From a virus (lineage: Duplodnaviria > Heunggongvirae > Uroviricota > Caudoviricetes): a DNA stretch of 39,494 nucleotides. Made by a program: the position numbers and the translations under genes. The notes below the pieces were generated by a model. The model was not told the origin of the DNA. It ran no database searches and saw only the letters and a list, made by a program, of their open reading frames with translations. Every line of letters starts with the position of its first letter. The first letter of the stretch is position 1. Shown piece after piece: positions 1,369 to 39,494 of this stretch. The stretch covers positions 1 through 39,494 of IMG/VR virus record IMGVR_UViG_2711768073_000020; one strand, written 5' to 3'.

Positions 1369-1444
1369 GCCGATATAGCTCAGTTGGTAGAGCAGCGCAT
1401 TCGTAATGCGAAGGTCGTAGGTTCGACTCCTATTATCGGCACCA
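1369..1444 (+). tRNA. thrW: tRNA-Thr (anticodon CGT)
   Basis: 76-nt sequence GCCGATATAGCTCAGTTGGTAGAGCAGCGCATTCGTAATGCGAAGGTCGTAGGTTCGACTCCTATTATCGGCACCA: D-loop AGCTCAGTTGGTAGAGC, anticodon loop TTCGTAA, T-loop GGTTCGACTCC, encoded CCA end. Confidence 0.93.
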
Positions 1445-1458
1445 TTTAAATCAATAAG

Positions 1459-2622
1459 TTACACATCATTAGTACCTTCCTTATTTTTTGACTGGGACAA
1501 ATTTGGGACCGATGGGTTCAGGATCGAGTCTATTTGCCGTGCGTGTTCGGTAAGGTGATTAGGTGCAAGGTGAGCATATCGACGAACCATTTCGATAGAC
1601 TCCCAGCCTCCCATTTCCTGTAACACTGACAACGGGACTCCGGCTTGAACCAGCCAACTTGCCCAGGTGTGTCTCAAGTCGTGAAATCTGAAATCATCAA
1701 TACCAGCCCGTCTCAGCGCCGCTTTCCAGGCTGTGTTTGCGTCATACCGCATCTTCCTTACTGTTGGCGCTTTCGTTCCGTCTGGTTTGGTACAGCTTTC
1801 CTTGTACACAAATACCCAACGGTGATGATTCCCGATTTGTTTTTTCAATACGCGACATGCAGTATCATTCAGCGCAACGCCAATTGCGCGGTTTGATTTA
1901 CTCTCTTCCGGGTTTATCCATGCCACCCGGCGCTGCATGTCTATTTGTTGCCATTCAAGGTTGATGATGTTCGAGCGTCTTAAGCCTGTTGCCAGTGCAA
2001 ATTCAACAACAGACTTTAATGGCTCCGGACATTCATCAATCAGCCTTTGTGCTTCATGAGGCTCCAGCCAGCGGATACGTTTATTCTTCGGTTGAGGCAC
2101 TTTAAGAATTGGTGCCTTATCCAGCATTTTCCATTCACGCTCTGCGGCTCTTAGCAGGGCCTTTATAAATGAAAGATGCGTAGCCTTCGTTGCAACGGAC
2201 GCTGGTTTTGGCGTGTATTCTGGAACAGGTTTCCCTTTTTTTCTGCATGCTTCTGCCCTGAGTTTCCAGTTTTCCTCATGACGCCGGTTTGTCATTTTCT
2301 GCATCGCTGAATAAATTTTTGATTCAGTGATGTCTCTTAGTTGCATCCCTGCGAAATGTTGAAGCCAGAATCCGATCCGGCTTTTGTCATCGTCCAGTGA
2401 TTTCTTATGTGCTTTCTCTTCGAGCCACCTGACACACGCTTCCTCAAACGTCATATCAGGTATTTCACCAAGTTTGCTGACCCGCCATGCTTCAGCCTTT
2501 AGCTTGTCATGGAGCTCTGTCGCCTGCCTTTTGTCCTTTGTTCCAAGAGACTGTTTAAATCTTTTACCGTTCGGCAATGTGAAACTGGCGTACCATATTT
2601 CACTTCTGCGGAAGAGTGACAT
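1459..2622 (-). CDS. int: Prophage integrase, tyrosine recombinase (P22/SfV-like, thrW-targeting), 387 aa
   Basis: Starts [33 protein letters not shown]; C-terminal catalytic region [39 protein letters not shown] (R-H-R-Y family); stop codon 15 bp downstream of the tRNA 3' end, the classic tRNA-adjacent integrase arrangement. Confidence 0.9.
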
Positions 2623-4995: not shown

Positions 4996-5060
4996 AATAA
5001 GTCCTCACTATATAAAGATATTCAGTGATGAGATAAATAATCAGTTAATTAAGAACGATA

Positions 5061-17202: not shown

Positions 17203-17228
17203 ATGCTTATTACAAAGAGTTTTCTTCA

Positions 17229-17579
17229 ATGCCACCACGAACTCCAAAAGCCTGCCGTGTTCGCGGGTGCCGCCGTACCACCACTGACCCGTCAGGTTAT
17301 TGCGAAAGCCACAAAAGCGAAGGCTGGAAGCAATACAAGCCAGGACAATCCCGTCATCAGCGCGGCTACGGTTCGAAGTGGGACGTTATCCGCGCGCGTG
17401 TGCTGAAACGTGACAAAGGTTTATGTCAGTTATGTCTGCGCGCTGGTGTGGTGCGTGAGGCGAAAACTGTTGACCACATCATCCCTAAAGCGCATGGCGG
17501 CACTGATGCCGACTGTAATCTGCAGAGTCTGTGCTGGCCGTGTCATAAGGCGAAGACGGCCCGTGAACGGTTGAAGTGA
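17229..17579 (+). CDS. HNH endonuclease (terminase-associated), copy 1, 116 aa
   Basis: Cys-rich zinc motifs (CRVRGC...CESH) and HNH core (DHIIPKAHGGTDADCNLQSLCWPCH); 5' part only ~88% identical to copy 2 at the DNA level. Confidence 0.8.
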   Translation: MPPRTPKACRVRGCRRTTTDPSGYCESHKSEGWKQYKPGQSRHQRGYGSKWDVIRARVLKRDKGLCQLCLRAGVVREAKTVDHIIPKAHGGTDADCNLQSLCWPCHKAKTARERLK

Positions 17580-17704
17580 TAATAATTCTCAACTGCCTGA
17601 GGGGAGGGGCGGGTCAAATCCCTGCGGCCTGACGTCTTCCGGACTGCCCGCCCCATCGTTTTTTTATACCCGCGAAAAATGAAATTTAACCAGGAGTGCC
17701 GCAT
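17580..17704. other. Candidate cos / packaging region between HNH and TerS (copy 1)
   Basis: GC-rich dyad GGGGCGGG...CCCGCCCC followed by TTTTTTTATAC; in HK97-type phages cos lies between the HNH gene and the small terminase gene. Confidence 0.3.
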
Positions 17705-18190
17705 ATGGCTGGAACGGCGGGGCGTTCCGGGCGTCGCCCCAAGCCAACGGCGCGCAAGGCGCTGGCCGGAAACCCCGGCAAGCGAGCCCTGAATAAAGAT
17801 GAACCTGTTTTTACGCCCATCAAAGGTGTTGAGCCACCGGAATGGTTCGCTGAAGAAGATCTCCCTCTCGCTACGATCATGTGGCAACTGACAACTAAAG
17901 AACTCTGCGGTCAGGGCCTGCTGTGCGTGACTGACCTCGCGGTGCTTGAGCGGTGGTGCGTGGCCTATGAGTTCTGGCGACGTGCCGTGAAAAATATTGC
18001 CAGCCAGGGCAACACCATTACCGGTGCAATGGGCGGTATGGTCAAAAACCCGGAGCTGACCGCCAAGAAAGAACAGGAGTCCGAGATGAGCAGCACGGGG
18101 GCAATGCTCGGACTCGACCCCAGCAGCCGCCAGCGTCTGATTGGCCTGGCGGGGAAGAAGAAAGCCACTAACCCGTTTCTGACAATCTGA
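17705..18190 (+). CDS. Terminase small subunit (P27 family), copy 1, 161 aa
   Basis: [14 protein letters not shown]... with AGGAG RBS 8 nt upstream of ATG 17705; protein identical to copy 2. Confidence 0.75.
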
Positions 18191-18203
18191 AAATCATCGA
18201 ATC

Positions 18204-18388
18204 ATGAGCCGGAAATCTTACCCCAACGTAAATGCTGCCAATCAGTATGCCCGGGATGTCGTGCGCGGAAAGATTGTGGCCTGCCAGTTTGTGATTCAGG
18301 CCTGCCAGCGCCATCTTGATGACCTGATGGCGGAAAAAAGTAAGTCGTTTCGTTACCGCTTCGACAAGGATCTGGCTGAACGGGCCGC
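18204..18388 (+). pseudogene. Terminase large subunit, 5' fragment (first ~62 codons) truncated at an IS3 junction
   Basis: Matches the first ~185 nt of the intact TerL gene at 21075 and diverges after 18388, where IS3-derived sequence begins. Confidence 0.8.
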
Positions 18389-19038
18389 ATTCCACGCAGA
18401 TTATGCCGCTTCAGTTGCGCCTGATAATCTGCTGAACAGTACTGGCCTCCACGGTCCGTGTGAACGATAACGTTCCGGGGCCTCTTACGCCGCCACAGCG
18501 CCATCTGCAGGGCATCGCAGGCCAGTTGCGCCGTCATGCGTGGCGACATTGACCAGCCAATAACGGCACGTGACCACAGGTCAATGACCACTGCCAGATA
18601 CAGCCAGCCTTCATCTGTACGTAAGTACGTGATGTCTCCTGCCCACTTCTGGTTCGGGCCACTGGCGTAAAAATCCTGCTCCAACAGATTTTCTGACACA
18701 GGCAGGCCGTGTGCGCGGTAGCTGACCGGGCTGAACTTCCGGGAGGCCTTTGCCCTCAGTCCCTGACGGCGCAGGCTTGCCGCCACGGTTTTTACGTTAA
18801 AGGGGTAACCCTGAGCACGCAGTTCATCCGTCAGGCGTGGGGCACCGTAACGCTGTTTTGACCGGGTAAAAGCCGCGAGGACAACGCTGTCGCAGTGTTG
18901 GCGGAACTGCTGACGCGTGCTTATCCTTGTCCGCCGCTGACACCACGTATACCAGCCGCTGCGGGCCACCCGGAGCACGCGGCACATTGCTTTGATGCTG
19001 AACTCAGCCTGATGTTTTTCAATAAAGACATACTTCAT
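18389..19038 (-). pseudogene. insF: IS3 transposase InsF (OrfB), 3'-truncated
   Basis: [36 protein letters not shown]...QLKRHNLRG matches IS3 InsF, then reads into non-IS DNA. Confidence 0.8.
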
Positions 19039-19949: not shown

Positions 19950-20099
19950 TTGTGAACTCCTGTTCATTGAGTTTCAACAACTATCAACTACATCCAGCGA
20001 AGCATAAAAGATCGTTTATGGCAAAACCGGAATGGAGTGCGATTCGATTCTGAGAAGGGTGCCACGTATCGTACGCGAACCATCCAAGAGGATTATGCA

Positions 20100-20450
20100 A
20101 TGCCCCCACGAACCCCAAAAGCCTGCCGCGTTCGCGGCTGCCGCCATACCACCACTGACTCGTCAGGCTATTGCGAAAGCCACAAAAGCGAAGGCTGGAA
20201 GCAATACAAGCCAGGCCAGTCCCGACACCAGCGCGGTTATGGTTCGAAATGGGATGTTATCCGTGAACGTGTGCTCAAGCGTGACAAAGGCCTGTGCCAG
20301 TTGTGCCTGCGTGCTGGTGTGGTGCGCGAGGCGAAAACCGTTGACCACATCATCCCTAAAGCGCATGGCGGCACTGATGCCGACTGTAATCTGCAGAGTC
20401 TGTGCTGGCCGTGTCATAAGGCGAAGACGGCCCGTGAACGGTTGAAGTGA
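20100..20450 (+). CDS. HNH endonuclease (terminase-associated), copy 2, 116 aa
   Basis: Same HNH motifs as copy 1; AGAGGA RBS 7 nt upstream of ATG 20100. Confidence 0.8.
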   Translation: MPPRTPKACRVRGCRHTTTDSSGYCESHKSEGWKQYKPGQSRHQRGYGSKWDVIRERVLKRDKGLCQLCLRAGVVREAKTVDHIIPKAHGGTDADCNLQSLCWPCHKAKTARERLK

Positions 20451-20575
20451 TAATAATTCTCAACTGTCTGAGGGGAGGGGCGGGTCAAATCTCTGCGGCC
20501 TGACGTCTTCAGGACTGCCCGCCCCATCGTTTTTTTATACCCGCGAAAAATGAAATTTAACCAGGAGTGCCGCAT
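20451..20575. other. Candidate cos / packaging region between HNH and TerS (copy 2)
   Basis: Same GC-rich dyad and T-tract as copy 1 with 3 substitutions. Confidence 0.3.
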
Positions 20576-21061
20576 ATGGCTGGAACGGCGGGGCGTTCCG
20601 GGCGTCGCCCCAAGCCAACGGCGCGCAAGGCGCTGGCCGGAAACCCCGGCAAGCGAGCCCTGAATAAAGATGAACCTGTTTTTACGCCCATCAAAGGTGT
20701 TGAGCCACCGGAATGGTTCGCTGAAGAAGATCTCCCTCTCGCTACGATCATGTGGCAACTGACAACTAAAGAACTCTGCGGTCAGGGCCTGCTGTGCGTG
20801 ACTGACCTCGCGGTGCTTGAGCGGTGGTGCGTGGCCTATGAGTTCTGGCGACGTGCCGTGAAAAATATTGCCAGCCAGGGCAACACCATTACCGGTGCAA
20901 TGGGCGGTATGGTCAAAAACCCGGAGCTGACCGCCAAGAAAGAACAGGAGTCCGAGATGAGCAGCACGGGGGCAATGCTCGGACTCGACCCCAGCAGCCG
21001 CCAGCGTCTGATTGGCCTGGCGGGGAAGAAGAAAGCCACTAACCCGTTTCTGACAATCTGA
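20576..21061 (+). CDS. Terminase small subunit (P27 family), copy 2, 161 aa
   Basis: Identical protein to copy 1; immediately followed by the intact large subunit. Confidence 0.8.
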
Positions 21062-21074
21062 AAATCATCGAATC

Positions 21075-22808
21075 ATGAGCCGGAAATCTTACCCCAACGT
21101 AAATGCTGCCAATCAGTATGCCCGTGATGTCGTGCGCGGAAAGATTGTGGCCTGCCAGTTTGTGATTCAGGCCTGCCAGCGCCATCTTGATGACCTGATG
21201 GCGGAAAAAAGTAAGTCGTTTCGTTACCGCTTCGACAAGGATCTGGCTGAACGGGCCGCCAAATTTATTCAGCTGTTGCCGCACACCAAGGGTGAGTGGG
21301 CATTCAAGAGGATGCCCATCACGCTGGAGCCGTGGCAGCTCTTTGTGATCTGCTGCGCGTTTGGCTGGGTCAATAAAGGCTCCCGGCTGCGCCGCTTCCG
21401 TGAGGTGTATACCGAAATCCCCCGTAAGAACGGCAAATCGGCAATCTCTGCCGGTGTCGCCCTGTATTGTTTTGCCTGTGATAACGAGTTCGGCGCGGAA
21501 GTGTATTCCGGTGCCACGACGGAGAAACAGGCATGGGAAGTCTTTCGTCCGGCAAGACTGATGTGTAAACGCACACCCATGCTGACGGAAGCGTTCGGGA
21601 TTGAGGTTAACGCCTCAAACATGAACCGTCCGGAGGATGGCGCGCGGTTTGAACCGCTGATCGGCAACCCCGGTGATGGTTCATCACCCCACTGTGCCGT
21701 GGTGGATGAATATCACGAGCACGCCACCGATGCGCTTTATACCACAATGCTTACCGGGATGGGGGCGCGACGTCAGCCACTGATGTGGGCCATCACCACC
21801 GCCGGGTACAACATTGAGGGGCCGTGCTACGACAAGCGGCGGGAAGTCATCGAGATGCTCAACGGCTCGGTGCCTAACGATGAACTGTTCGGGATCATCT
21901 ATACCGTTGATGAAGGTGACGACTGGACCGACCCGCAGGTGCTGGAAAAAGCCAATCCAAATATTGGCGTATCGGTTTATCGCGAATTTTTGTTAAGTCA
22001 GCAGCAGCGTGCGAAAAATAACGCCCGTCTGGCAAACGTCTTTAAAACAAAACACCTCAATATCTGGGTGTCGGCACGTTCGGCGTATTTCAACCTGGTG
22101 AGCTGGCAGAGCTGCGAGGATAAATCACTGACCCTTGAGCAGTTCGAGGGGCAGCCGTGCATTCTGGCCTTTGACCTGGCGCGTAAGCTGGATATGAACA
22201 GCATGGCGCGACTTTATACCCGCGAGATTGACGGTAAAACGCATTACTACAGTGTGGTCCCGCGCTTCTGGGTACCGTATGACACGGTGTACAGCGTCGA
22301 GAAAAATGAAGATAGACGGACAGCCGAACGCTTTCAGAAATGGGTGGAAATGGGCGTCCTGACCGTTACCGATGGTGCAGAGGTGGATTATCGCTACATC
22401 CTCGAAGAGGCCAAAGCGGCGAACAAAATCAGCCCGGTCAGTGAGTCACCCATCGACCCCTTCGGGGCGACCGGGCTGTCACATGACCTTGCTGATGAAG
22501 ATCTGAATCCCGTCACTATCGTCCAGAACTTCGCCAATATGTCCGATCCGATGAAAGAGCTGGAAGCAGCGATTGAATCGGGACGCTTTCATCATGACGG
22601 CAATCCCATCATGACCTGGTGTATCGGCAATGTGGTCGGCAAAAACATGCCAGGTAACGATGATTTAGTGAAGCCCGTCAAGGAGCAGGCGGAAAACAAA
22701 ATCGATGGTGCGGTTGCACTGATTATGACGATCGGTCGGGCAATGCTCAAAGAACCTGACGATTTCCTCTCATCTCTTGATCCGGACGATGATCTCTTAA
22801 TTCTATGA
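21075..22808 (+). CDS. Terminase large subunit, 577 aa
   Basis: Size and position after TerS; N-terminal ATPase region with Walker A-like EIPRKNGKS and C-terminal nuclease region. Confidence 0.9.
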
Positions 22809-34683: not shown

Positions 34684-35231
34684 TGAGGACGATTGAAGCC
34701 ATGCAGCGACAACTCCTCGGCCTGATTGGGCGGGCCGTGGTGAAAAGCATCAGTGCCGCCACGAAATGTCAGACCGTGGATGTGTCCCTGATTGCCGGTG
34801 AACCCAAAGCCGGGGTTGAACATCTTGAACCCTACGGTTTTACCGCAAGGGCAAACAGCGGTGCGGAAGCGGTGGTGTTGTTTCCGGATGGCGACCGTTC
34901 TCATGCGGTGGTTGTTACGGTGTCGGACCGTCGCTACCGCCTGAAAGGGCTGCAAACGGGGGAGGTGGCTGTCTATGACGATCAGGGGCAGTCCGTGACG
35001 CTGACCCGGGAGGGGATCGTGGTGGACGGTGCAGGTAAAACGATCACGTTTCGCAATGCGCCCAGAGCACGTTTTGAAATGGACCTGGAAGTGACCGGAC
35101 AGGTGAAAGACCTGTGCGACTCCGGCGGCACCACCATGTCAGCGATGCGGCTTGCCTATAACGGGCATCGTCACAGAGAGAACGGTCAGGGCAGTAACAC
35201 CGACAAACCTGATAAAGCGATGGAGGCATGA
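34683..35231 (+). CDS. Baseplate assembly protein V-like (Mu gp45-like spike), 182 aa
   Basis: Position and size. Confidence 0.6.
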   Translation: MRTIEAMQRQLLGLIGRAVVKSISAATKCQTVDVSLIAGEPKAGVEHLEPYGFTARANSGAEAVVLFPDGDRSHAVVVTVSDRRYRLKGLQTGEVAVYDDQGQSVTLTREGIVVDGAGKTITFRNAPRARFEMDLEVTGQVKDLCDSGGTTMSAMRLAYNGHRHRENGQGSNTDKPDKAMEA

Positions 35232-35656
35232 TGGAACTGTGGCTGACGGTGAACGGTAAACGCACCTGCGCCAGCGCACCGCTGGATCCGCTGACCCGCG
35301 CCGTGGTGATTTCCCTGTTCACCTGGCGGCGGGCGGAGCCTGATGACAATGCCGACGTCCCGATGGGATGGTGGGGGGATACCTGGCCTGCGGTACAGAA
35401 TGACCGTTACGGCTCCCGGCTGTGGCTGCTTCAGCGCAGCAAACTGACCAATCAGCTGGTGCTGACGGTAAGGGGGTATATCCGCGAATGCCTGCAATGG
35501 ATGATTGATGACGGCGTGGTGTCCCGTATTGATCTGGATATCCGCCGCACCGGGATTAATGAACTGGGTAACAGTATCACTCTCTGGCGTCGTGACGGAC
35601 CGGTAATGATTTCTTTTGATGATCTGTGGAGTGCGATAACGCATGGCGGACAGTGA
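35228..35656 (+). CDS. Baseplate protein, GP46 family (W-like), 142 aa
   Basis: Position and size between V-like and J-like genes. Confidence 0.6.
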   Translation: MMELWLTVNGKRTCASAPLDPLTRAVVISLFTWRRAEPDDNADVPMGWWGDTWPAVQNDRYGSRLWLLQRSKLTNQLVLTVRGYIRECLQWMIDDGVVSRIDLDIRRTGINELGNSITLWRRDGPVMISFDDLWSAITHGGQ

Positions 35657-36701
35657 ATTTCAGCGCCCGACGCTGGCAGAAAATATCAGTATGCTCCGTA
35701 ACGATTTATTCGCCAGGCTGGACGTCAGCGACACGCTCCGGCGCATGGATGAAGACGTGCGGGCAAAGGTGTATGCGGCGGCGCTGCATACGGTTTACGG
35801 GTACATCGATTATCTGGCAATGAACATGCTGCCTGACCTGTGCGATGAGTCCTGGCTGGCGCGACATGCTGCGATGAAACGGTGTCCGCGCAAGGGGGCC
35901 ACGGCTGCCAGCGGGTATATGCGCTGGGAAGGTGTCAGCGATGGCCTGAAGGTGACCGCCGGGAGTGTTATTCAGCGCGATGACCTGGTTCAGTATACTG
36001 CAACTGCCGATGCAACCAGCTCCGGTGGTGTCCTGCGCGTGCCGATCGCCTGCTCAAATGCAGGCGCGGTCGGTAACGCTGACGACGGTACGGCATTAAT
36101 CCTGGTCACGCCGGTGAATGGTCTGCCGTCTTCCGGTGTGGCTGACACCCTGACAGGCGGATTTGATACTGAAGAGCTGGAAACGTGGCGCGCCCGCGTC
36201 ATTGAGCGGTATTACTGGACGCCGCAGGGCGGGGCTGACGGGGACTATGTCGTCTGGGCTAAAGAAGTGCCCGGCATTACCCGCGCATGGACATACCGTC
36301 ACTGGATGGGAACGGGAACTGTCGGTGTGATGATTGCCAGCAGTGACCTGATTAATCCCATTCCGGAAGAATCAACGGAAACGGCGGCAAGACAACATAT
36401 CGAGCCACTGGCCCCGGTGGCAGGCTCTGATTTGTATGTGTTCAGGCCGGTGGCACATACGGTGGATTTTCATATCCGCGTGACGCCGGACACACCAGAA
36501 ATACGGGCTGCCATTACCGCGGAGTTGCGTTCGTTCCTGCTGCGTGATGGTTATCCGCAGGGAGAACTCAAGGTATCGCGTATCAGTGAGGCGATTTCCG
36601 GTGCGAACGGGGAATACAGCCATCAGTTGCTTGCACCGGTGGACAATATCTCCATTGCGAAAAACGAACTGGCGGTACTGGGGACGATTTCATGGACGTG
36701 A
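35643..36701 (+). CDS. Baseplate J-like protein (Mu gp47-like), 352 aa
   Basis: Position and size. Confidence 0.7.
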
Positions 36702-37276
36702 CAAACGATGATTACATCCGCCTGTTATCGGCACTGTTGCCGCCCGGTCCGGCGTGGTCAGCCAGCGATCCGGCGATTGCCGGTGCGGCACCGTCATTAA
36801 CCCGTGTTCATCAGCGTGCGGATGCCCTGATGCGGGAGCTGGATCCGCGCACCACCACTGAACTGATAAACCGCTGGGAGCGTCTGTGCGGTCTGCCGGA
36901 TGAATGTATTCCGGCAGGGACGCAGACCCTTCGCCAGCGTCAGCAACGGCTGGATGCGAAGGTTAACCTGGCGGGCGGCATCAACGAGAATTTTTATCTT
37001 GCACAGCTTGCTGCCCTGGGCAGACCAGACGCTACCATCACGCGATACGACAAAAGCACGTTCACCTGCTCATCGGCCTGTACTGACGCGGTGAATGCGC
37101 CGGAATGGCGGTATTACTGGCAGGTCAACATGCCAGCCGCCACAAACACCACCTGGATGACATGTGGCGATCCCTGTGATTCCGCGCTGCGTATCTGGGG
37201 CGACACCGTTGTCGAGTGTGTGCTTAACAAACTCTGCCCGTCGCATACCTACGTAATTTTTAAATATCCGGAGTAA
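36692..37276 (+). CDS. Tail protein, DUF2313/YmfQ-like (Mu gp48-like), 194 aa
   Basis: Position immediately before the tail fibre gene. Confidence 0.6.
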
Positions 37277-37279
37277 TCC

Positions 37280-37984
37280 ATGCATCGTATAGACACGAAA
37301 ACCGCGCAGAAGGATAAGTTCGGCGCGGGTAAGAACGGTTTTACCCGTGGTAACCCCCAGACCGGCACACCTGCCACCGATCTGGATGATGACTACTTTG
37401 ACATGTTGCAGGAAGAACTTTGTAGCGTGGTGGAGGCATCCGGTGCCAGTCTGGAGAAGGCGCGGCACGACCAGCTGCTTACCGCGCTTCGTGCGCTGCT
37501 GTTAAGCCGCAAGAATCCGTTTGGCGATATCAAATCGGATGGCACGGTGAAAACGGCTCTCGAAAACCTTGGTTTGGGAGAAGGCTCTGCATTACCCGTA
37601 GGTGTGCCTGTTCCGTGGCCTTCAGTCACACCGCCAACAGGTTGGCTGAAATGCAACGGTGCAGCTTTTTCTGCCGAAGAGTATCCGGAACTGGCAAAAG
37701 TTTATCCGACAAATAAATTGCCAGATTTACGCGGCGAATTCATTCGTGGGTGGGATGATGGAAGAGGAATTGATTCAGGACGGACTCTCCTGTCTGCTCA
37801 GGACGGGAGCATTGAGGCACACGGCCATGATTACAATGGGGTCATCTATACTTCTAGCGGTCCTTCCTGGGCTAATACGACGGATGCGGGACACCGGGCA
37901 TATTCGGGATTTACATCATCATATGGCGGGAGTGAAACCCGTCCACGAAATATTGCATTTAACTTTATCGTGAGGGCTGCATAA
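37280..37984 (+). CDS. Tail fibre protein: constant N-terminal part plus variable C-terminal part in the current orientation, 234 aa
   Basis: Tail-collar-like motif [23 protein letters not shown]; the N-terminal coding region 37472-37583 is repeated in inverted orientation at 39383-39494. Confidence 0.8.
37472..37583. repeat. Left inverted repeat of tail fibre invertible region (112 bp within the window)
   Basis: Exact reverse-complement match to 39383-39494; extent unknown because the right copy hits the window end. Confidence 0.75.
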
Positions 37985-38586
37985 TGGATAACGCCGTATT
38001 AAATAGCGAGCTTATTGCCACGAAGGCGGGGAATATTACCGTCTATAACTATGATGGTGAAACTCGGGAATATATTTCCACTTCAAATGAATATCTTGCC
38101 ATTGGTGTCGGTATCCCTGCATATTCCTGTTTAGATGCCCCTGGCACACATAAGGCGGGTTATGCTATCTGCCGTTCGATGGATTTAAACTCATGGGAAT
38201 ATGTGCCAGACCATCGCGGTGAAATCGTTTATAGCACCGAAACAGGAGAATTGAAAGAAATCACAGGTCCGGGTGATTATCCTGAAAATACGACCACTAT
38301 CGCCCCGTTAACGCCATACGATGAATGGGATGGTGAGAAATGGGTGACGGATACCGAGGCACAGCATAGCGCCGCAGTAGATGCAGCAGAAGCACAGCGC
38401 CAGTCGCTTATTGATGCTGCTATGGCTTCCATCAGTCTGATTCAACTGAAATTGCAGGCCGGACGGAAGTTGATGCAGGCAGAAACAACTCGCCTTAACG
38501 TTGTGCTGGATTATATCGACGCGGTGACGGCAACAGATACCAGCACCGCGCCGGATGTCATCTGGCCTGAACTGCCGGAGGCGTAG
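37984..38586 (+). CDS. Tail fibre assembly protein (Tfa), 200 aa
   Basis: Follows the tail fibre gene; conserved C-terminal TDTSTAPDVIWPELP motif shared with the convergent minus-strand Tfa. Confidence 0.75.
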   Translation: MDNAVLNSELIATKAGNITVYNYDGETREYISTSNEYLAIGVGIPAYSCLDAPGTHKAGYAICRSMDLNSWEYVPDHRGEIVYSTETGELKEITGPGDYPENTTTIAPLTPYDEWDGEKWVTDTEAQHSAAVDAAEAQRQSLIDAAMASISLIQLKLQAGRKLMQAETTRLNVVLDYIDAVTATDTSTAPDVIWPELPEA

Positions 38587-39001
38587 GCCATTCAATATCG
38601 GGGGCTGTTGAAGTATCAACACGCATCAGCAGCACACGGTATTTCTTCCATTGGGTGAGAGTTGAAGTTTCTTCATCAGTTGCAATGCCCGCATCAACAG
38701 CATCCTGACGCCAGGATATTTCACTGTCAGCTTTTGCACGAAATGTGGCTTTCATGTTTTCTGCATCTGATATTTTCTGTTCTGGTGAAAGCGGCGGCTC
38801 ATCAACCCATGCAAGGGCCCCTGAAACCATTCCCAGCATTTTTCCTGTTGGCTTATTTCCCCCATTAAATCTGACAGCATCCTCATCGCTGATTTCAATA
38901 CCATCCTGCGGCCATGTCCCCTCCTTGATATAACTTTCGTATAGCGCTGCGTTGTAGATTGCATTTTCGGAAGGGCTGTAAACACTTTTAACTTTATTCA
39001 T
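38558..39001 (-). CDS. Alternative tail fibre assembly protein (Tfa'), inverted orientation, 147 aa
   Basis: Convergent with Tfa, shares C-terminal VDTSTAPDIEWPTPP motif. Confidence 0.7.
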   Translation of the reverse strand: MNKVKSVYSPSENAIYNAALYESYIKEGTWPQDGIEISDEDAVRFNGGNKPTGKMLGMVSGALAWVDEPPLSPEQKISDAENMKATFRAKADSEISWRQDAVDAGIATDEETSTLTQWKKYRVLLMRVDTSTAPDIEWPTPPAVQAR

Positions 39002-39005
39002 TCTG

Positions 39006-39494
39006 TTATCTCCCTTTCGCTATATAGCAAAGATTAAACCCACCGCTACCTGACATACGGGCTGTAAAACCCGTTCTTGAAGTACCAGTTGAGTTAACTC
39101 CATAAGCAGGCATGGTTGTTGGAGAAAGCAGAGACTCCTGGATATCTGCCATTGTCAGTGTAATTGATTCGACCCGCGCGGGGAAAGGTAGCGGGAAAAC
39201 AACATTCGTCCCTGTCTGTCCAACGGGGAAACCGAAAATACCCCATTGTGTAATTACCCCATCCGGCCCCTTACTCCATCCAGATTTAGGATTCGGCCAG
39301 TCTGCTGCTCCAGAGTGCCCCGTTGTAAAACTACTCATATCTGGTACTTGCCCGGTATCCGTTCCGACGTTCCTCGTTGCCGCTTCTCCCAAACCAAGGT
39401 TTTCGAGAGCCGTTTTCACCGTGCCATCCGATTTGATATCGCCAAACGGATTCTTGCGGCTTAACAGCAGCGCACGAAGCGCGGTAAGCAGCTG
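39006..39494 (-). CDS. Alternative tail fibre variable C-terminal segment, partial at window end (no own start codon)
   Basis: Minus-strand reading frame continues from the inverted repeat (…[15 protein letters not shown]) into a different variable domain; would be joined to the constant N-terminus after inversion. Confidence 0.65.
39383..39494. repeat. Right inverted repeat of tail fibre invertible region (truncated by the window end)
   Basis: Reverse complement of 37472-37583. Confidence 0.75.
39384..39409. other. Candidate Din-family invertase crossover site (TTCTCCCAAACC-AA-GGTTTTCGAGAG); partner copy at 37557-37582
   Basis: 26-bp imperfect dyad resembling hix/gix/cix sites, at the inner edge of the inverted repeat on both sides. 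Confidence 0.45.

Follow-up and report, generated by a model that had tools for sequence, protein, structure and literature searches.

The window (the whole stretch of 39,494 nucleotides analyzed here) closes with a perfect inverted repeat that encloses two convergent tail-fibre modules. This raises the question of whether the right end of the window is part of an invertible host-range switch and, if so, whether the long repeat is a genuine component of that switch. We conclude that the window very probably ends inside a Pin-type (e14 P-segment type) invertible fibre cassette, with a chimeric contig end that derives from the flipped isomer. The host element is an SfV-like, Mu-tailed prophage located at thrW, next to proA.

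Gene organization of the tail-fibre segment

The open reading frames were arranged as the first-pass annotation had described them, namely a fibre gene, its Tfa, an opposing Tfa' and a minus-strand frame lacking a start codon. The tail-fibre gene (37280-37984, plus strand) encodes a 234-aa protein with a Collar domain, referred to here as the A-form fibre, and is composed of a constant and a variable part. The constant N-terminal exon (37280-37582, plus strand; aa 1-101) corresponds to Mu Sc. Its last residues, ...ALENLGLGE, are specified by the crossover site, and it showed 96% amino acid identity to e14 StfP (residues 1-105). In MS 69-1, the A-form (234 aa) and B-form (226 aa) fibres do not differ in this exon, residues 1-101 being common to both. 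The variable C-terminal exon in the currently expressed orientation, Sv (37583-37984, plus strand; aa 102-234), is StfE-like, with a Pfam Collar match at E=1.3e-14 and 62% amino acid identity to e14 StfE. It is followed by Tfa (37984-38586, plus strand; 200 aa), a TfaE-like tail-fibre assembly chaperone cognate to Sv, which matched Pfam Caudo_TAP at E=8.7e-30 and showed 90.5% amino acid identity to e14 TfaE.

The alternative module is encoded on the minus strand. Its chaperone, Tfa' (38558-39001; 147 aa), overlaps Tfa by 29 nt at their 3' ends and also belongs to Caudo_TAP (E=7.1e-33); the C-terminal half is 41% identical to e14 TfaP and 43% to Mu U. For the exact Tfa' protein, the collection listed 1204 blocks; in each of the 10 places shown, an invertase gene lay next to it. 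The alternative C-terminal exon, S'v (39006-39383, minus strand), carries a Gp53-like_C domain (E=1.1e-10) and lies inside an open frame (39006-39494) that has no start of its own inside the segment. Its product matched the annotated B-form fibre WP_000554657.1 (L002, TUM1226) at 100% over residues 65-226. As judged from the sequence, S'v would be silent in the window orientation and, after inversion, would be fused to the constant exon to give a 226-aa fibre. The 234-aa A-form is read in the window, and the 226-aa B-form in the records L002 and L006. Two convergent modules, each consisting of a C-terminal exon and its own Caudo_TAP chaperone gene, hence alternate on one constant exon, as in the e14 subtype.

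Inverted repeat and crossover sites in the window

The 112-bp inverted repeat reported in the first pass was found again as a feature of the window; its arms (37472-37583 and 39383-39494) were 100% complementary and 1799 nt apart. The 26-bp dyads that had been placed at the inner repeat edges were both located as exact 26-mer matches, with one crossover site per arm, at the inner edge and 1 base from the arm end. The 26-mer TTCTCCCAAACCAAGGTTTTCGAGAG occurred in exactly two copies, at 37557-37582 (minus strand) and 39384-39409 (plus strand), and 100 shuffles gave an expectation of no copies by chance. No additional copies were detected elsewhere in the window when up to 3 mismatches were allowed. 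A multi-segment (Min/shufflon-like) system was also considered and was rejected, since neither this search nor one for the AAACC-NN-SGTTT core revealed extra sites in the window.

Both window sites are inverted, 26-bp imperfect dyads with the same centre (AA/TT), as is typical of the Din family, and their AAACC-NN-GGTTT core is that of Mu gixL and gixR. The fibre-side crossover site (pix; 37557-37582) reads CTCTCGAAAACC TT GGTTTGGGAGAA on the plus strand, with its central dinucleotide at 37569-37570, and is identical at 26 of 26 positions to the site inside stfP of K-12 e14 (L004 4779-4804); the e14 site sequences were read from the K-12 genome itself. The right-hand site as printed (39384-39409) is TTCTCCCAAACC AA GGTTTTCGAGAG. 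Its inner half and centre (39384-39397) are genuine and also match e14. Its outer half (39398-39409), in contrast, equals the fibre-side half, where complete relatives all have CGTTTATGAAAA. Of the e14-type pix pair, the site within the fibre gene has the form TTCTCCCAAACC-AA-GGTTTTCGAGAG and the pin-side site the form TTCTCCCAAACC-AA-CGTTTATGAAAA. The fibre-gene site is present in the window, and the pin-side site was found at the matching place in all close relatives; in the window, the pin-side outer half-site has been replaced by the chimeric contig end. The invertible segment of P-segment type, about 1.8 kb in length, extends between the central dinucleotides of both sites (37571-39395).

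Both orientations of the segment

The closest finished genome was MS 69-1 (L001), which was 99.65% identical over window 32291-39402 (7.1 kb). Comparison of the MS 69-1 chromosome with its 'plasmid unnamed3' revealed that only the segment was flipped, with flanks of 6112 and 6020 nt that were 100% identical. The segment was likewise flipped in the TUM1226 chromosome, which was checked in detail. Among the finished genomes carrying the same cassette pair and constant exon, H1-H6 had the window orientation and H7-H9, H24 and H25 the flipped one, and the SfV/e14-type loci on long contigs with the exact Tfa' were divided equally, with 3 in each orientation. Both orientations, as expected of the Din family, were observed in the MS 69-1 pair, in the finished genomes and, through the flipped junction, at the window's own end.

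The invertase gene and its flank

Since the draft contig breaks off before them, the window lacks the invertase gene and the genuine right-hand site; these, like the putative enhancer, were read in relatives. In MS 69-1, pinE starts 55 nt past the end of the right-hand site and 67 nt from the site centre. The encoded Pin (184 aa, Resolvase and HTH_7 domains) is identical to e14 PinE at 175 of 184 residues (95%) and to Mu Gin at 146 of 184 (79%), and its best solved relatives were the Gin structures 3UJ3 and 4M6F (E=1.5e-95). The invertase-side site of this genome matched that of e14 at 26 of 26 positions, and the 80-nt stretch from the site to the pin start was identical as well. A Resolvase plus HTH_7 gene was also located beside the segment in TUM1226, in K-12 e14 and in each of the 10 long contigs that encode the exact Tfa'. 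The relatives stand proxy here for the small serine invertase (about 185-195 aa, with a Resolvase catalytic domain and a C-terminal HTH_7) that accompanies a Din-family segment; in every relative examined, the gene directly adjoined the segment, just outside the window, where the first-pass annotation had expected it.

In the Din family, a cis-acting enhancer at the 5' end of the invertase gene, roughly 100 bp away from the closer crossover site, carries a pair of Fis sites spaced by about 48 bp. By sequence resemblance, the pin gene of the relative contains two suggestive candidates within its coding region, both of them 15-mers of the form G-N13-C with an A/T-rich middle, at +22 and +71, 49 bp apart; the centre of the first candidate lies about 95 bp from that of the crossover site. 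The two candidates were kept in e14 pinE and Mu gin, a conservation that is confounded with that of the protein, as these stretches are coding. A TAATG element was present between the candidates in pin and pinE, where Mu gin has GAAACG; the Hin enhancer likewise has such an element between its Fis sites (PMC3798978). A scan of the L001 spacer between site and pin for sigma-70 promoters that could serve pin or the pin-proximal ORF gave nothing above shuffle expectation.

The proposal of a host-range-switch type of tail-fibre inversion segment was borne out by the adjacent invertase genes and by the occurrence of both orientations in relatives, and the locus is thus assigned, from its sequence features, as a predicted host-range switch in the form of a Din-family (Gin/Hin/Pin/Cin type) invertible tail-fibre segment. 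The structure seen directly would provide the substrate, with the constant exon (aa 1-101) leading through a 26-bp site into the 1.8-kb segment and its convergent Sv plus Tfa and S'v plus Tfa' modules. By analogy with the family, PinE, encoded just right of the segment, would bind both sites, and an enhancer occupied by Fis at the 5' end of pinE itself would activate it. It would then cut at the central AA/TT and rotate the strands, thereby flipping the segment. The constant exon would consequently be joined either to the Collar-type C-terminus, giving a 234-aa fibre with a TfaE-like chaperone, or to the gp53-like C-terminus, giving a 226-aa fibre with Tfa', and the progeny would have two receptor specificities.

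A different reading is that of a locked relic, in which the invertase was lost or inactivated, as in the single-module SfV-type phages, and the second module is a fossil. It would agree with the situation in SfV and its relatives, which have the constant exon and the site in common with the window yet possess a single module and lack an invertase, and with the fact that the invertase is known here through relatives. However, both modules are intact ORFs with significant domain hits, the flipped junction is present in the contig end, and the closest relatives all keep an intact 184-aa pin. Furthermore, the Pin paralogues PinQ and PinR can invert the e14 segment in trans (PMC12529663). A locked relic is very improbable, and the Pin-type invertible cassette is preferred.

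Origin of the long inverted repeat

The window is draft contig CYGD01000024.1 (GCA_001284425.1) short of a single base at the end. With this final base included, the repeat is 113 nt long and therefore reaches the contig end exactly. The exact fibre protein was located on a single contig. In the complete relatives, the inverted repeat was 20 nt with 19 matches; in the 13 reference loci, it was about 20 nt, and each locus had one fibre-type and one invertase-type site, whereas the window has two fibre-type sites. The long inverted repeats, as a structure of the genome, were not upheld, since the complete relatives have the 20-nt repeat with the other outer half, CGTTTATGAAAA, and then pin. The last 97 nt of the window (39398-39494, minus strand) are the reverse complement of constant exon 37472-37568; they constitute the Sc|S'v junction of the flipped isomer and matched the flipped record at 100%. 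Collinearity with the MS 69-1 chromosome stopped at 39402, whereas the flipped record L002 matched through 39494, and six records collinear from the left all stopped at window 39402. In no finished genome was 39398-39494 joined to the window orientation of the segment. The arrangement of the window was absent from 20,395 complete E. coli records, none of which was collinear past 39402 in one place.

These comparisons bear on the alternative that the long repeat is real, with the right arm leading into a second complete convergent fibre gene or into a large inverted duplication of the tail module with swapped C-termini. Such a structure would be in keeping with the minus-strand frame being open to the edge and the repeat being perfect to the last base. 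It would also have a counterpart in the C segment of P1, likewise a Din-family tail-fibre switch (Cin), which has genuine 0.6-kb inverted repeats. Nevertheless, a second complete convergent fibre gene, which the first-pass annotation had kept as an alternative, was found in 0 of the 20,395 complete E. coli records and in 0 of the 13 reference loci; all 13 of these loci have the invertase-type outer half-site and pin on that side. Two fibre-type sites with identical flanks are a configuration seen in no relative, and the repeat ends exactly where the draft contig does. A repeat of 112/113 nt was seen only at this draft contig end, and the true repeat of the window, in contrast to that of P1, is only about 20 nt. 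A real long repeat is extremely improbable.

The 112-base repeat is most likely an assembly artefact in which the two orientations were mixed at the draft contig end. The assembler would have left the segment via the flipped Sc|S'v junction, re-entered its own reverse complement and stopped, and this path would have created a 112/113-nt perfect repeat that the genome, with its true repeat of about 20 nt, does not contain. The possibility that a 15-20-nt repeat alone misled the assembler without flipped reads was rejected: 92 nt are present beyond 39402, and real Sc|S'v junction reads are therefore needed. We infer that the flipped-junction reads arose from inversion within the sequenced culture. 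The odd repeat length of 113 is compatible with a de Bruijn k; in a widely used Velvet pipeline, k is chosen at 66-90% of read length (PMC5320598). At the same locus in an independent draft scaffold, a 1396-nt perfect inverted repeat abutted a 10-N gap, and it is an artefact of the same class as the 112-nt repeat.

A second locus with the same constant exon and the cassette in the other orientation would yield the same contig end. In that case, the segment would be of the same Pin type, and the chimeric end would come from a second element in which the constant exon is joined to S'v, the two loci having been collapsed or cross-joined. An e14-like remnant or another SfV-like prophage could be such an element. 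Cassettes of this kind often occur more than once per genome (median of 2 matching places, up to 10 or 11), and the finished AP022095.1 has identical Tfa' at two loci (L015, L016). Yet the constant exon of the second element would have to match that of the window prophage at 100% over at least 113 nt, and K-12 e14 differs within that stretch (TVQTAL vs TVKTAL). Moreover, the contig is unbroken across the whole 1.8-kb segment, whereas a two-copy repeat would normally interrupt a contig at the segment borders, and mixed orientations in single cultures are documented for the e14/Pin system. A contribution from a second locus is unlikely, and a chimeric end formed from the flipped isomer of the same cassette is favoured.

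Relation to known invertible segments

The system itself is already known, as a Pin-invertible tail-fibre segment was first described in the E. coli prophage e14. The earlier comparison with the Mu G and P1 C segments was correct as to the type of inversion switch, but the system that is matched exactly is that of e14, with its P segment and Pin. Inversion of this segment (stfP-tfaP-tfaE-stfE-pinE) in clonal cultures and by PinE has been published (PMC4272514, PMC12529663). It is of the same size class, with 1797 bp published (PMC12529663) versus 1799 nt between the window arms, and has the same gene layout, including the 29-nt 3' overlap of the tfa genes; an upstream ymfQ/Mu gp48-type baseplate gene is common to both. 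However, e14 is a remnant at icd, whereas the window belongs to a full-length SfV-like prophage at thrW/proA whose baseplate and head genes are intact. The window also has the StfE/TfaE-like module in the expressed position, which is the 'inverted' state of K-12, and its other module is a diverged allele, in which S'v shares 36% identity with the C-terminus of StfP and Tfa' shares 41% with TfaP.

With the Mu G/Gin system, the locus shares the constant Sc exon, an in-gene crossover site encoding the NLGL motif, convergent S-U and U'-S' modules, short repeats and the position of the invertase gene directly to the right of the segment; the baseplate genes of the window are homologues of Mu gp44-48. 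In contrast, the segment of Mu measures 3 kb and its fibre exons are much longer; moreover, its gix half-sites are TTCCTGTAAACC instead of TTCTCCCAAACC, and the fibres share little sequence past the junction motif. The tail/baseplate module and constant exon showed 96-98% DNA identity to those of the Shigella flexneri serotype-converting phages SfV, SfI, SfII and SfIV, and the SfV-type homology ended exactly at the crossover site (window 37583). Beyond it, SfV has a single fibre C-terminus and tfa followed by gtr genes, with no second module and no invertase. The SfV-group phages use the same thrW/proA type of integration site as the window prophage.

Possible second role and implications

In the complete relatives, the flank next to pin contains an in-frame ATG from which a 143-aa ORF starts (MMPFACYFFIFINVGLGE plus the gp53-like domain). 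This ORF is the counterpart of e14 StfE2, and the 'silent' module next to pin may therefore be expressed, although we regard this as unlikely. The gp53-like allele of the window has diverged, with only 36% identity to that of e14. According to a 2025 paper, e14 StfE2 prevents phage T2 and other phages from adsorbing (PMC12529663). If the module were expressed in this way, the switch of the intact prophage would control both virion receptor specificity and a surface-blocking protein that protects the host.

As a lesson for method, a short-read contig from a mixed-orientation culture runs through the segment into the reverse complement of its own flank. Spurious perfect long inverted repeats are thus expected exactly at contig ends or beside scaffold gaps, where they are a footprint of orientation heterogeneity and not a structure of the genome. 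The 64-kb 'plasmid' in a RefSeq 'complete' genome, a chromosomal duplicate with only the segment flipped, probably reflects the same effect. As for the biology, the locus is a case of textbook phage bet-hedging, in which an SfV-like prophage can make virions with two alternative fibres.

Organization of the fibre cassette

The window is an SfV-like prophage inserted at thrW, whose left part carries a tRNA-Thr(CGT) gene (1369–1444), proA, a tyrosine integrase, head genes, and Mu-type tail and baseplate genes. Toward the right end, the fibre gene (37280–37984, plus strand; 234 aa, Pfam Collar) is followed by Tfa (37984–38586, plus; 200 aa, Caudo_TAP). The minus strand encodes Tfa′ (38558–39001; 147 aa, Caudo_TAP) and an open frame for an alternative fibre C-terminus, which extends leftward from 39494 as far as a stop at 39006 (Gp53-like_C). 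These ORFs and domains agree with the two convergent modules of fibre C-terminus plus Tfa described in the first-pass annotation. The 3′ ends of the two tfa genes share 29 nt (38558–38586), so that each strand of this stretch codes for a conserved C-terminal peptide, TSTAPD[VI]...WP. The tfaP/tfaE pair of the K-12 e14 element also has a 29-nt overlap, whereas U and U′ of Mu do not overlap.

The cassette is bounded by inverted-repeat arms of 112 nt each (37472–37583 and 39383–39494), 100% complementary and spaced by 1799 nt. Inside the arms, the 26-mer TTCTCCCAAACCAAGGTTTTCGAGAG occurs in exactly two copies, 37557–37582 (minus) and 39384–39409 (plus), with none expected by chance; no extra copy was found in the window with up to three mismatches allowed. 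Both the exact repeat and its 26-bp sites were therefore as first described. The window is identical to contig CYGD01000024.1 (assembly GCA_001284425.1), the only contig on which the 234-aa fibre protein is recorded, except that the final base, G, is absent; including it, the repeat grows to 113 nt. Thus, the right repeat is truncated, as had been noted, but the cut is where a draft contig ends, one base further on, and not an arbitrary window edge.

Near the terminase genes, a 1174-bp direct repeat (96.8% identical) was also observed at 17215–18388 and 20086–21259. Duplicated within it are an HNH endonuclease gene (17229–17579), the small terminase gene (17696–18190 and 20567–21061; both 164 aa, Terminase_4), and ~185 nt from the start of the large terminase gene. 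An IS-type transposase gene (18202–19038, minus; rve and HTH_21) lies between the copies. Possible origins are a real IS-associated duplication, a further assembly join, and recombination between two prophages that are related.

An invertase gene adjoins the segment in relatives

Of the finished genomes, that of E. coli MS 69-1 is closest; its chromosomal locus (L001) is collinear with window 32291–39402 at 99.65% identity, the match ending within the right-hand site. In L001 this site reads TTCTCCCAAACC AA CGTTTATGAAAA, and the genuine inverted repeat there is only 20 nt with 19 matches. A gene annotated pinE (184 aa; Resolvase and HTH_7 domains) starts 55 nt past the site end, 67 nt from the site centre, so the invertase sought to the right is present in this relative, next to a much shorter repeat. 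Its product is identical to K-12 e14 PinE at 175/184 residues and to Mu Gin at 146/184, and among solved structures the best matches are those of Gin (3UJ3 and 4M6F). Among the matches listed, a Resolvase plus HTH_7 gene adjoins the exact Tfa′ gene in 10 of 10 places.

In MS 69-1, the 3′ part of tRNA-Thr (window 1399–1462) recurs ~3.5 kb to the right of pin (L001 12211–12274, 95% identity), adjoining another integrase pseudogene. The two copies are probably the attL/attR core of thrW integration; on this reading, an AraC-type regulator and a LEM-3-like GIY-YIG gene would both be carried as cargo in the interval from pin to attR, and a second thrW island would lie in tandem.

The segment occurs in both orientations

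We compared the MS 69-1 chromosome with the RefSeq record "plasmid unnamed3" of the same strain (NZ_CP146678.1, here L002). The flanks were 100% identical over 6112 and 6020 nt, and the sole difference was the orientation of 1839 nt. Besides the tail region of the same prophage, this 64,057-bp record has flanks of non-phage DNA; rather than a real replicon, it is probably a surplus contig that arose from orientation heterogeneity in the long reads. Among finished genomes with the same constant exon and cassette pair, the window orientation was found in six and the flipped one in five. In TUM1226, inspected in detail, pinE lies beside a now-silent Collar exon, and SfV/e14-type loci with the exact Tfa′ on long contigs showed three cases per orientation among the matches listed. 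Inversion, as proposed from the sequence alone, is thus borne out by finished genomes and by the MS 69-1 records, and we consider it very improbable that the segment is a locked relic without an invertase. In e14, the P-segment repeats are TTGGTTTGGGAGAAGG, PinE, PinQ, and PinR each invert the segment, and 33% of 562 deposited genomes carry it inverted (PMC12529663); both orientations coexist in clonal K-12 cultures (PMC4272514).

The long repeat is probably an assembly product

Five results agree that the long inverted repeat of the window is not genomic. L001, in the same orientation, departs from the window past the central dinucleotide, first by a G/C difference at 39398 and then, beyond 39402, completely. 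The flipped record L002 matches window 37564–39494 at 99.9%, and the last 92 nt at 100%; there, the constant exon (Sc) is joined to the alternative exon S′v, giving an annotated 226-aa fibre whose residues 65–226 are 100% identical to the minus-strand frame of the window. Furthermore, each segment in 13 reference loci (11 distinct) has one fibre-type site, with outer half GGTTTTCGAGAG or a close variant, and one invertase-type site, with outer half CGTTTATGAAAA or a variant; in the window, unlike in all of these, both sites are of the fibre type. Its arrangement was found in none of 20,395 complete E. coli replicons, among which six records collinear with the window from the left all stop at 39402. 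Finally, the right end of the repeat coincides exactly with the contig end. A genuinely long repeat or a second complete convergent fibre gene, the alternative raised in the first-pass annotation, is therefore hardly credible.

On the simplest reading, the sequenced DNA held both Sc|Sv and Sc|S′v junctions (Sv being the expressed exon). The assembler would have exited the segment via the flipped junction, entered the reverse complement of already-used sequence, and halted. As a lead, the odd length of 113 nt, counted from the inner limit of the shared sequence, fits a de Bruijn unitig with k=113; a common Velvet pipeline chooses k at 66–90% of read length (PMC5320598). Instead of switching in culture, a second locus in the genome might be the source of the flipped-junction reads, and identical Tfa′ is indeed present twice in one finished genome. 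This is unlikely, however, as the constant exon of such a locus would have to be identical over 113 nt or more, and a segment in two copies would normally break the contig. This locus is also covered by an independent draft scaffold, KE700821.1 (GCA_000459015.1; locus L013), which has a 1396-nt perfect inverted repeat (L013 3600–4995 and 5511–6906) abutting a 10-N scaffold gap (4996–5005). The repeat is an artefact of the same class, and the two orientations of the segment appear to stand next to each other in this scaffold, S′v and Tfa′ being duplicated.

Comparison with known systems

The system is the already known e14/Pin P segment, here in a complete SfV-like prophage; PGAP already annotates the relatives' invertase as pinE, and the same cassettes are annotated in many RefSeq genomes. 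In stfP-tfaP-tfaE-stfE-pinE of K-12 MG1655, the fibre-side site is the same as in the window and the invertase-side site is identical to that of L001, an identity that extends through the 80 nt leading up to the pin start codon. Identity to e14 is 96% for the constant exon (StfP residues 1–105), 90.5% for Tfa (TfaE), and 62% for the expressed fibre C-terminus (StfE), so that relative to the K-12 reference the window has a StfE/TfaE-type module in the expressed position. S′v and Tfa′ are only 36% and 41% identical to the StfP C-terminus and TfaP, and by sequence this module is a diverged allele of that in e14. The proposed likeness to the Mu G segment held for the architecture and for the AAACC-NN-GGTTT core common to the gix sites, and the site-coded fibre motif NLGL is also common to both (LENLGLGE in the window, IQNLGLQE in Mu). 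The system does not belong with the long-repeat type of P1; its closest counterpart is the e14 P segment.

In the pin-proximal flank, corresponding to true-genome sequence just right of window 39397, an in-frame ATG opens an ORF of the "silent" exon's own (L001 8307–8738, minus; L002 5969–6421, plus; 143 or 150 aa). The 143-aa form consists of MMPFACYFFIFINVGLGE plus a gp53-like domain; the N-terminus MPFACYFFIFINVGLGE is the same as that of e14 StfE, and the ORF is the counterpart of e14 StfE2, to which a 2025 paper attributes anti-T2 activity through a reported block of T2 adsorption (PMC12529663). A scan found no promoter-like site for it. That this ORF gives the switch a host-defence side is quite doubtful.

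The resemblance to SfV covers the tail module and the constant exon as far as the crossover site; SfV itself carries a single fibre module and lacks an invertase. DNA homology to SfV, SfI, SfII, and SfIV (96–98%) stops at 37583, exactly the inner edge of the site, indicating that the crossover site also marks the mosaic boundary that separates switch-bearing phages from those lacking the switch. An identical 147-aa Tfa′ was also observed in two P2-type prophage loci (Tail_P2_I; 442-aa Phage_tail_fib plus Collar fibre), adjoining 188–197-aa invertases and with pix-like sites. This indicates that SfV/e14-type phages exchange fibre and chaperone cassettes with P2-type phages, and do so at the crossover site.

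Proposed mechanism

Two sites, the exon/chaperone layout, two alternative full-length fibres, and both orientations were observed directly, and an invertase adjacent to the segment in relatives. From what is known of the Din-family invertases Hin and Gin, Pin dimers would bind both crossover sites, which would synapse on a Fis-bound enhancer in the pin 5′ end; Pin would then cut at the central AA/TT and exchange strands by subunit rotation. As a candidate enhancer, two Fis-like 15-mers were found 49 bp apart in the coding sequence of pin, at +22 (centred ~95 bp from the site centre) and +71. Both are kept in pinE and gin, which selection on the protein could equally bring about. Between them, pin and pinE have TAATG, as in the Hin enhancer, and Mu gin has GAAACG. 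By analogy with Mu and P1, the two fibres would give the phage different host ranges.
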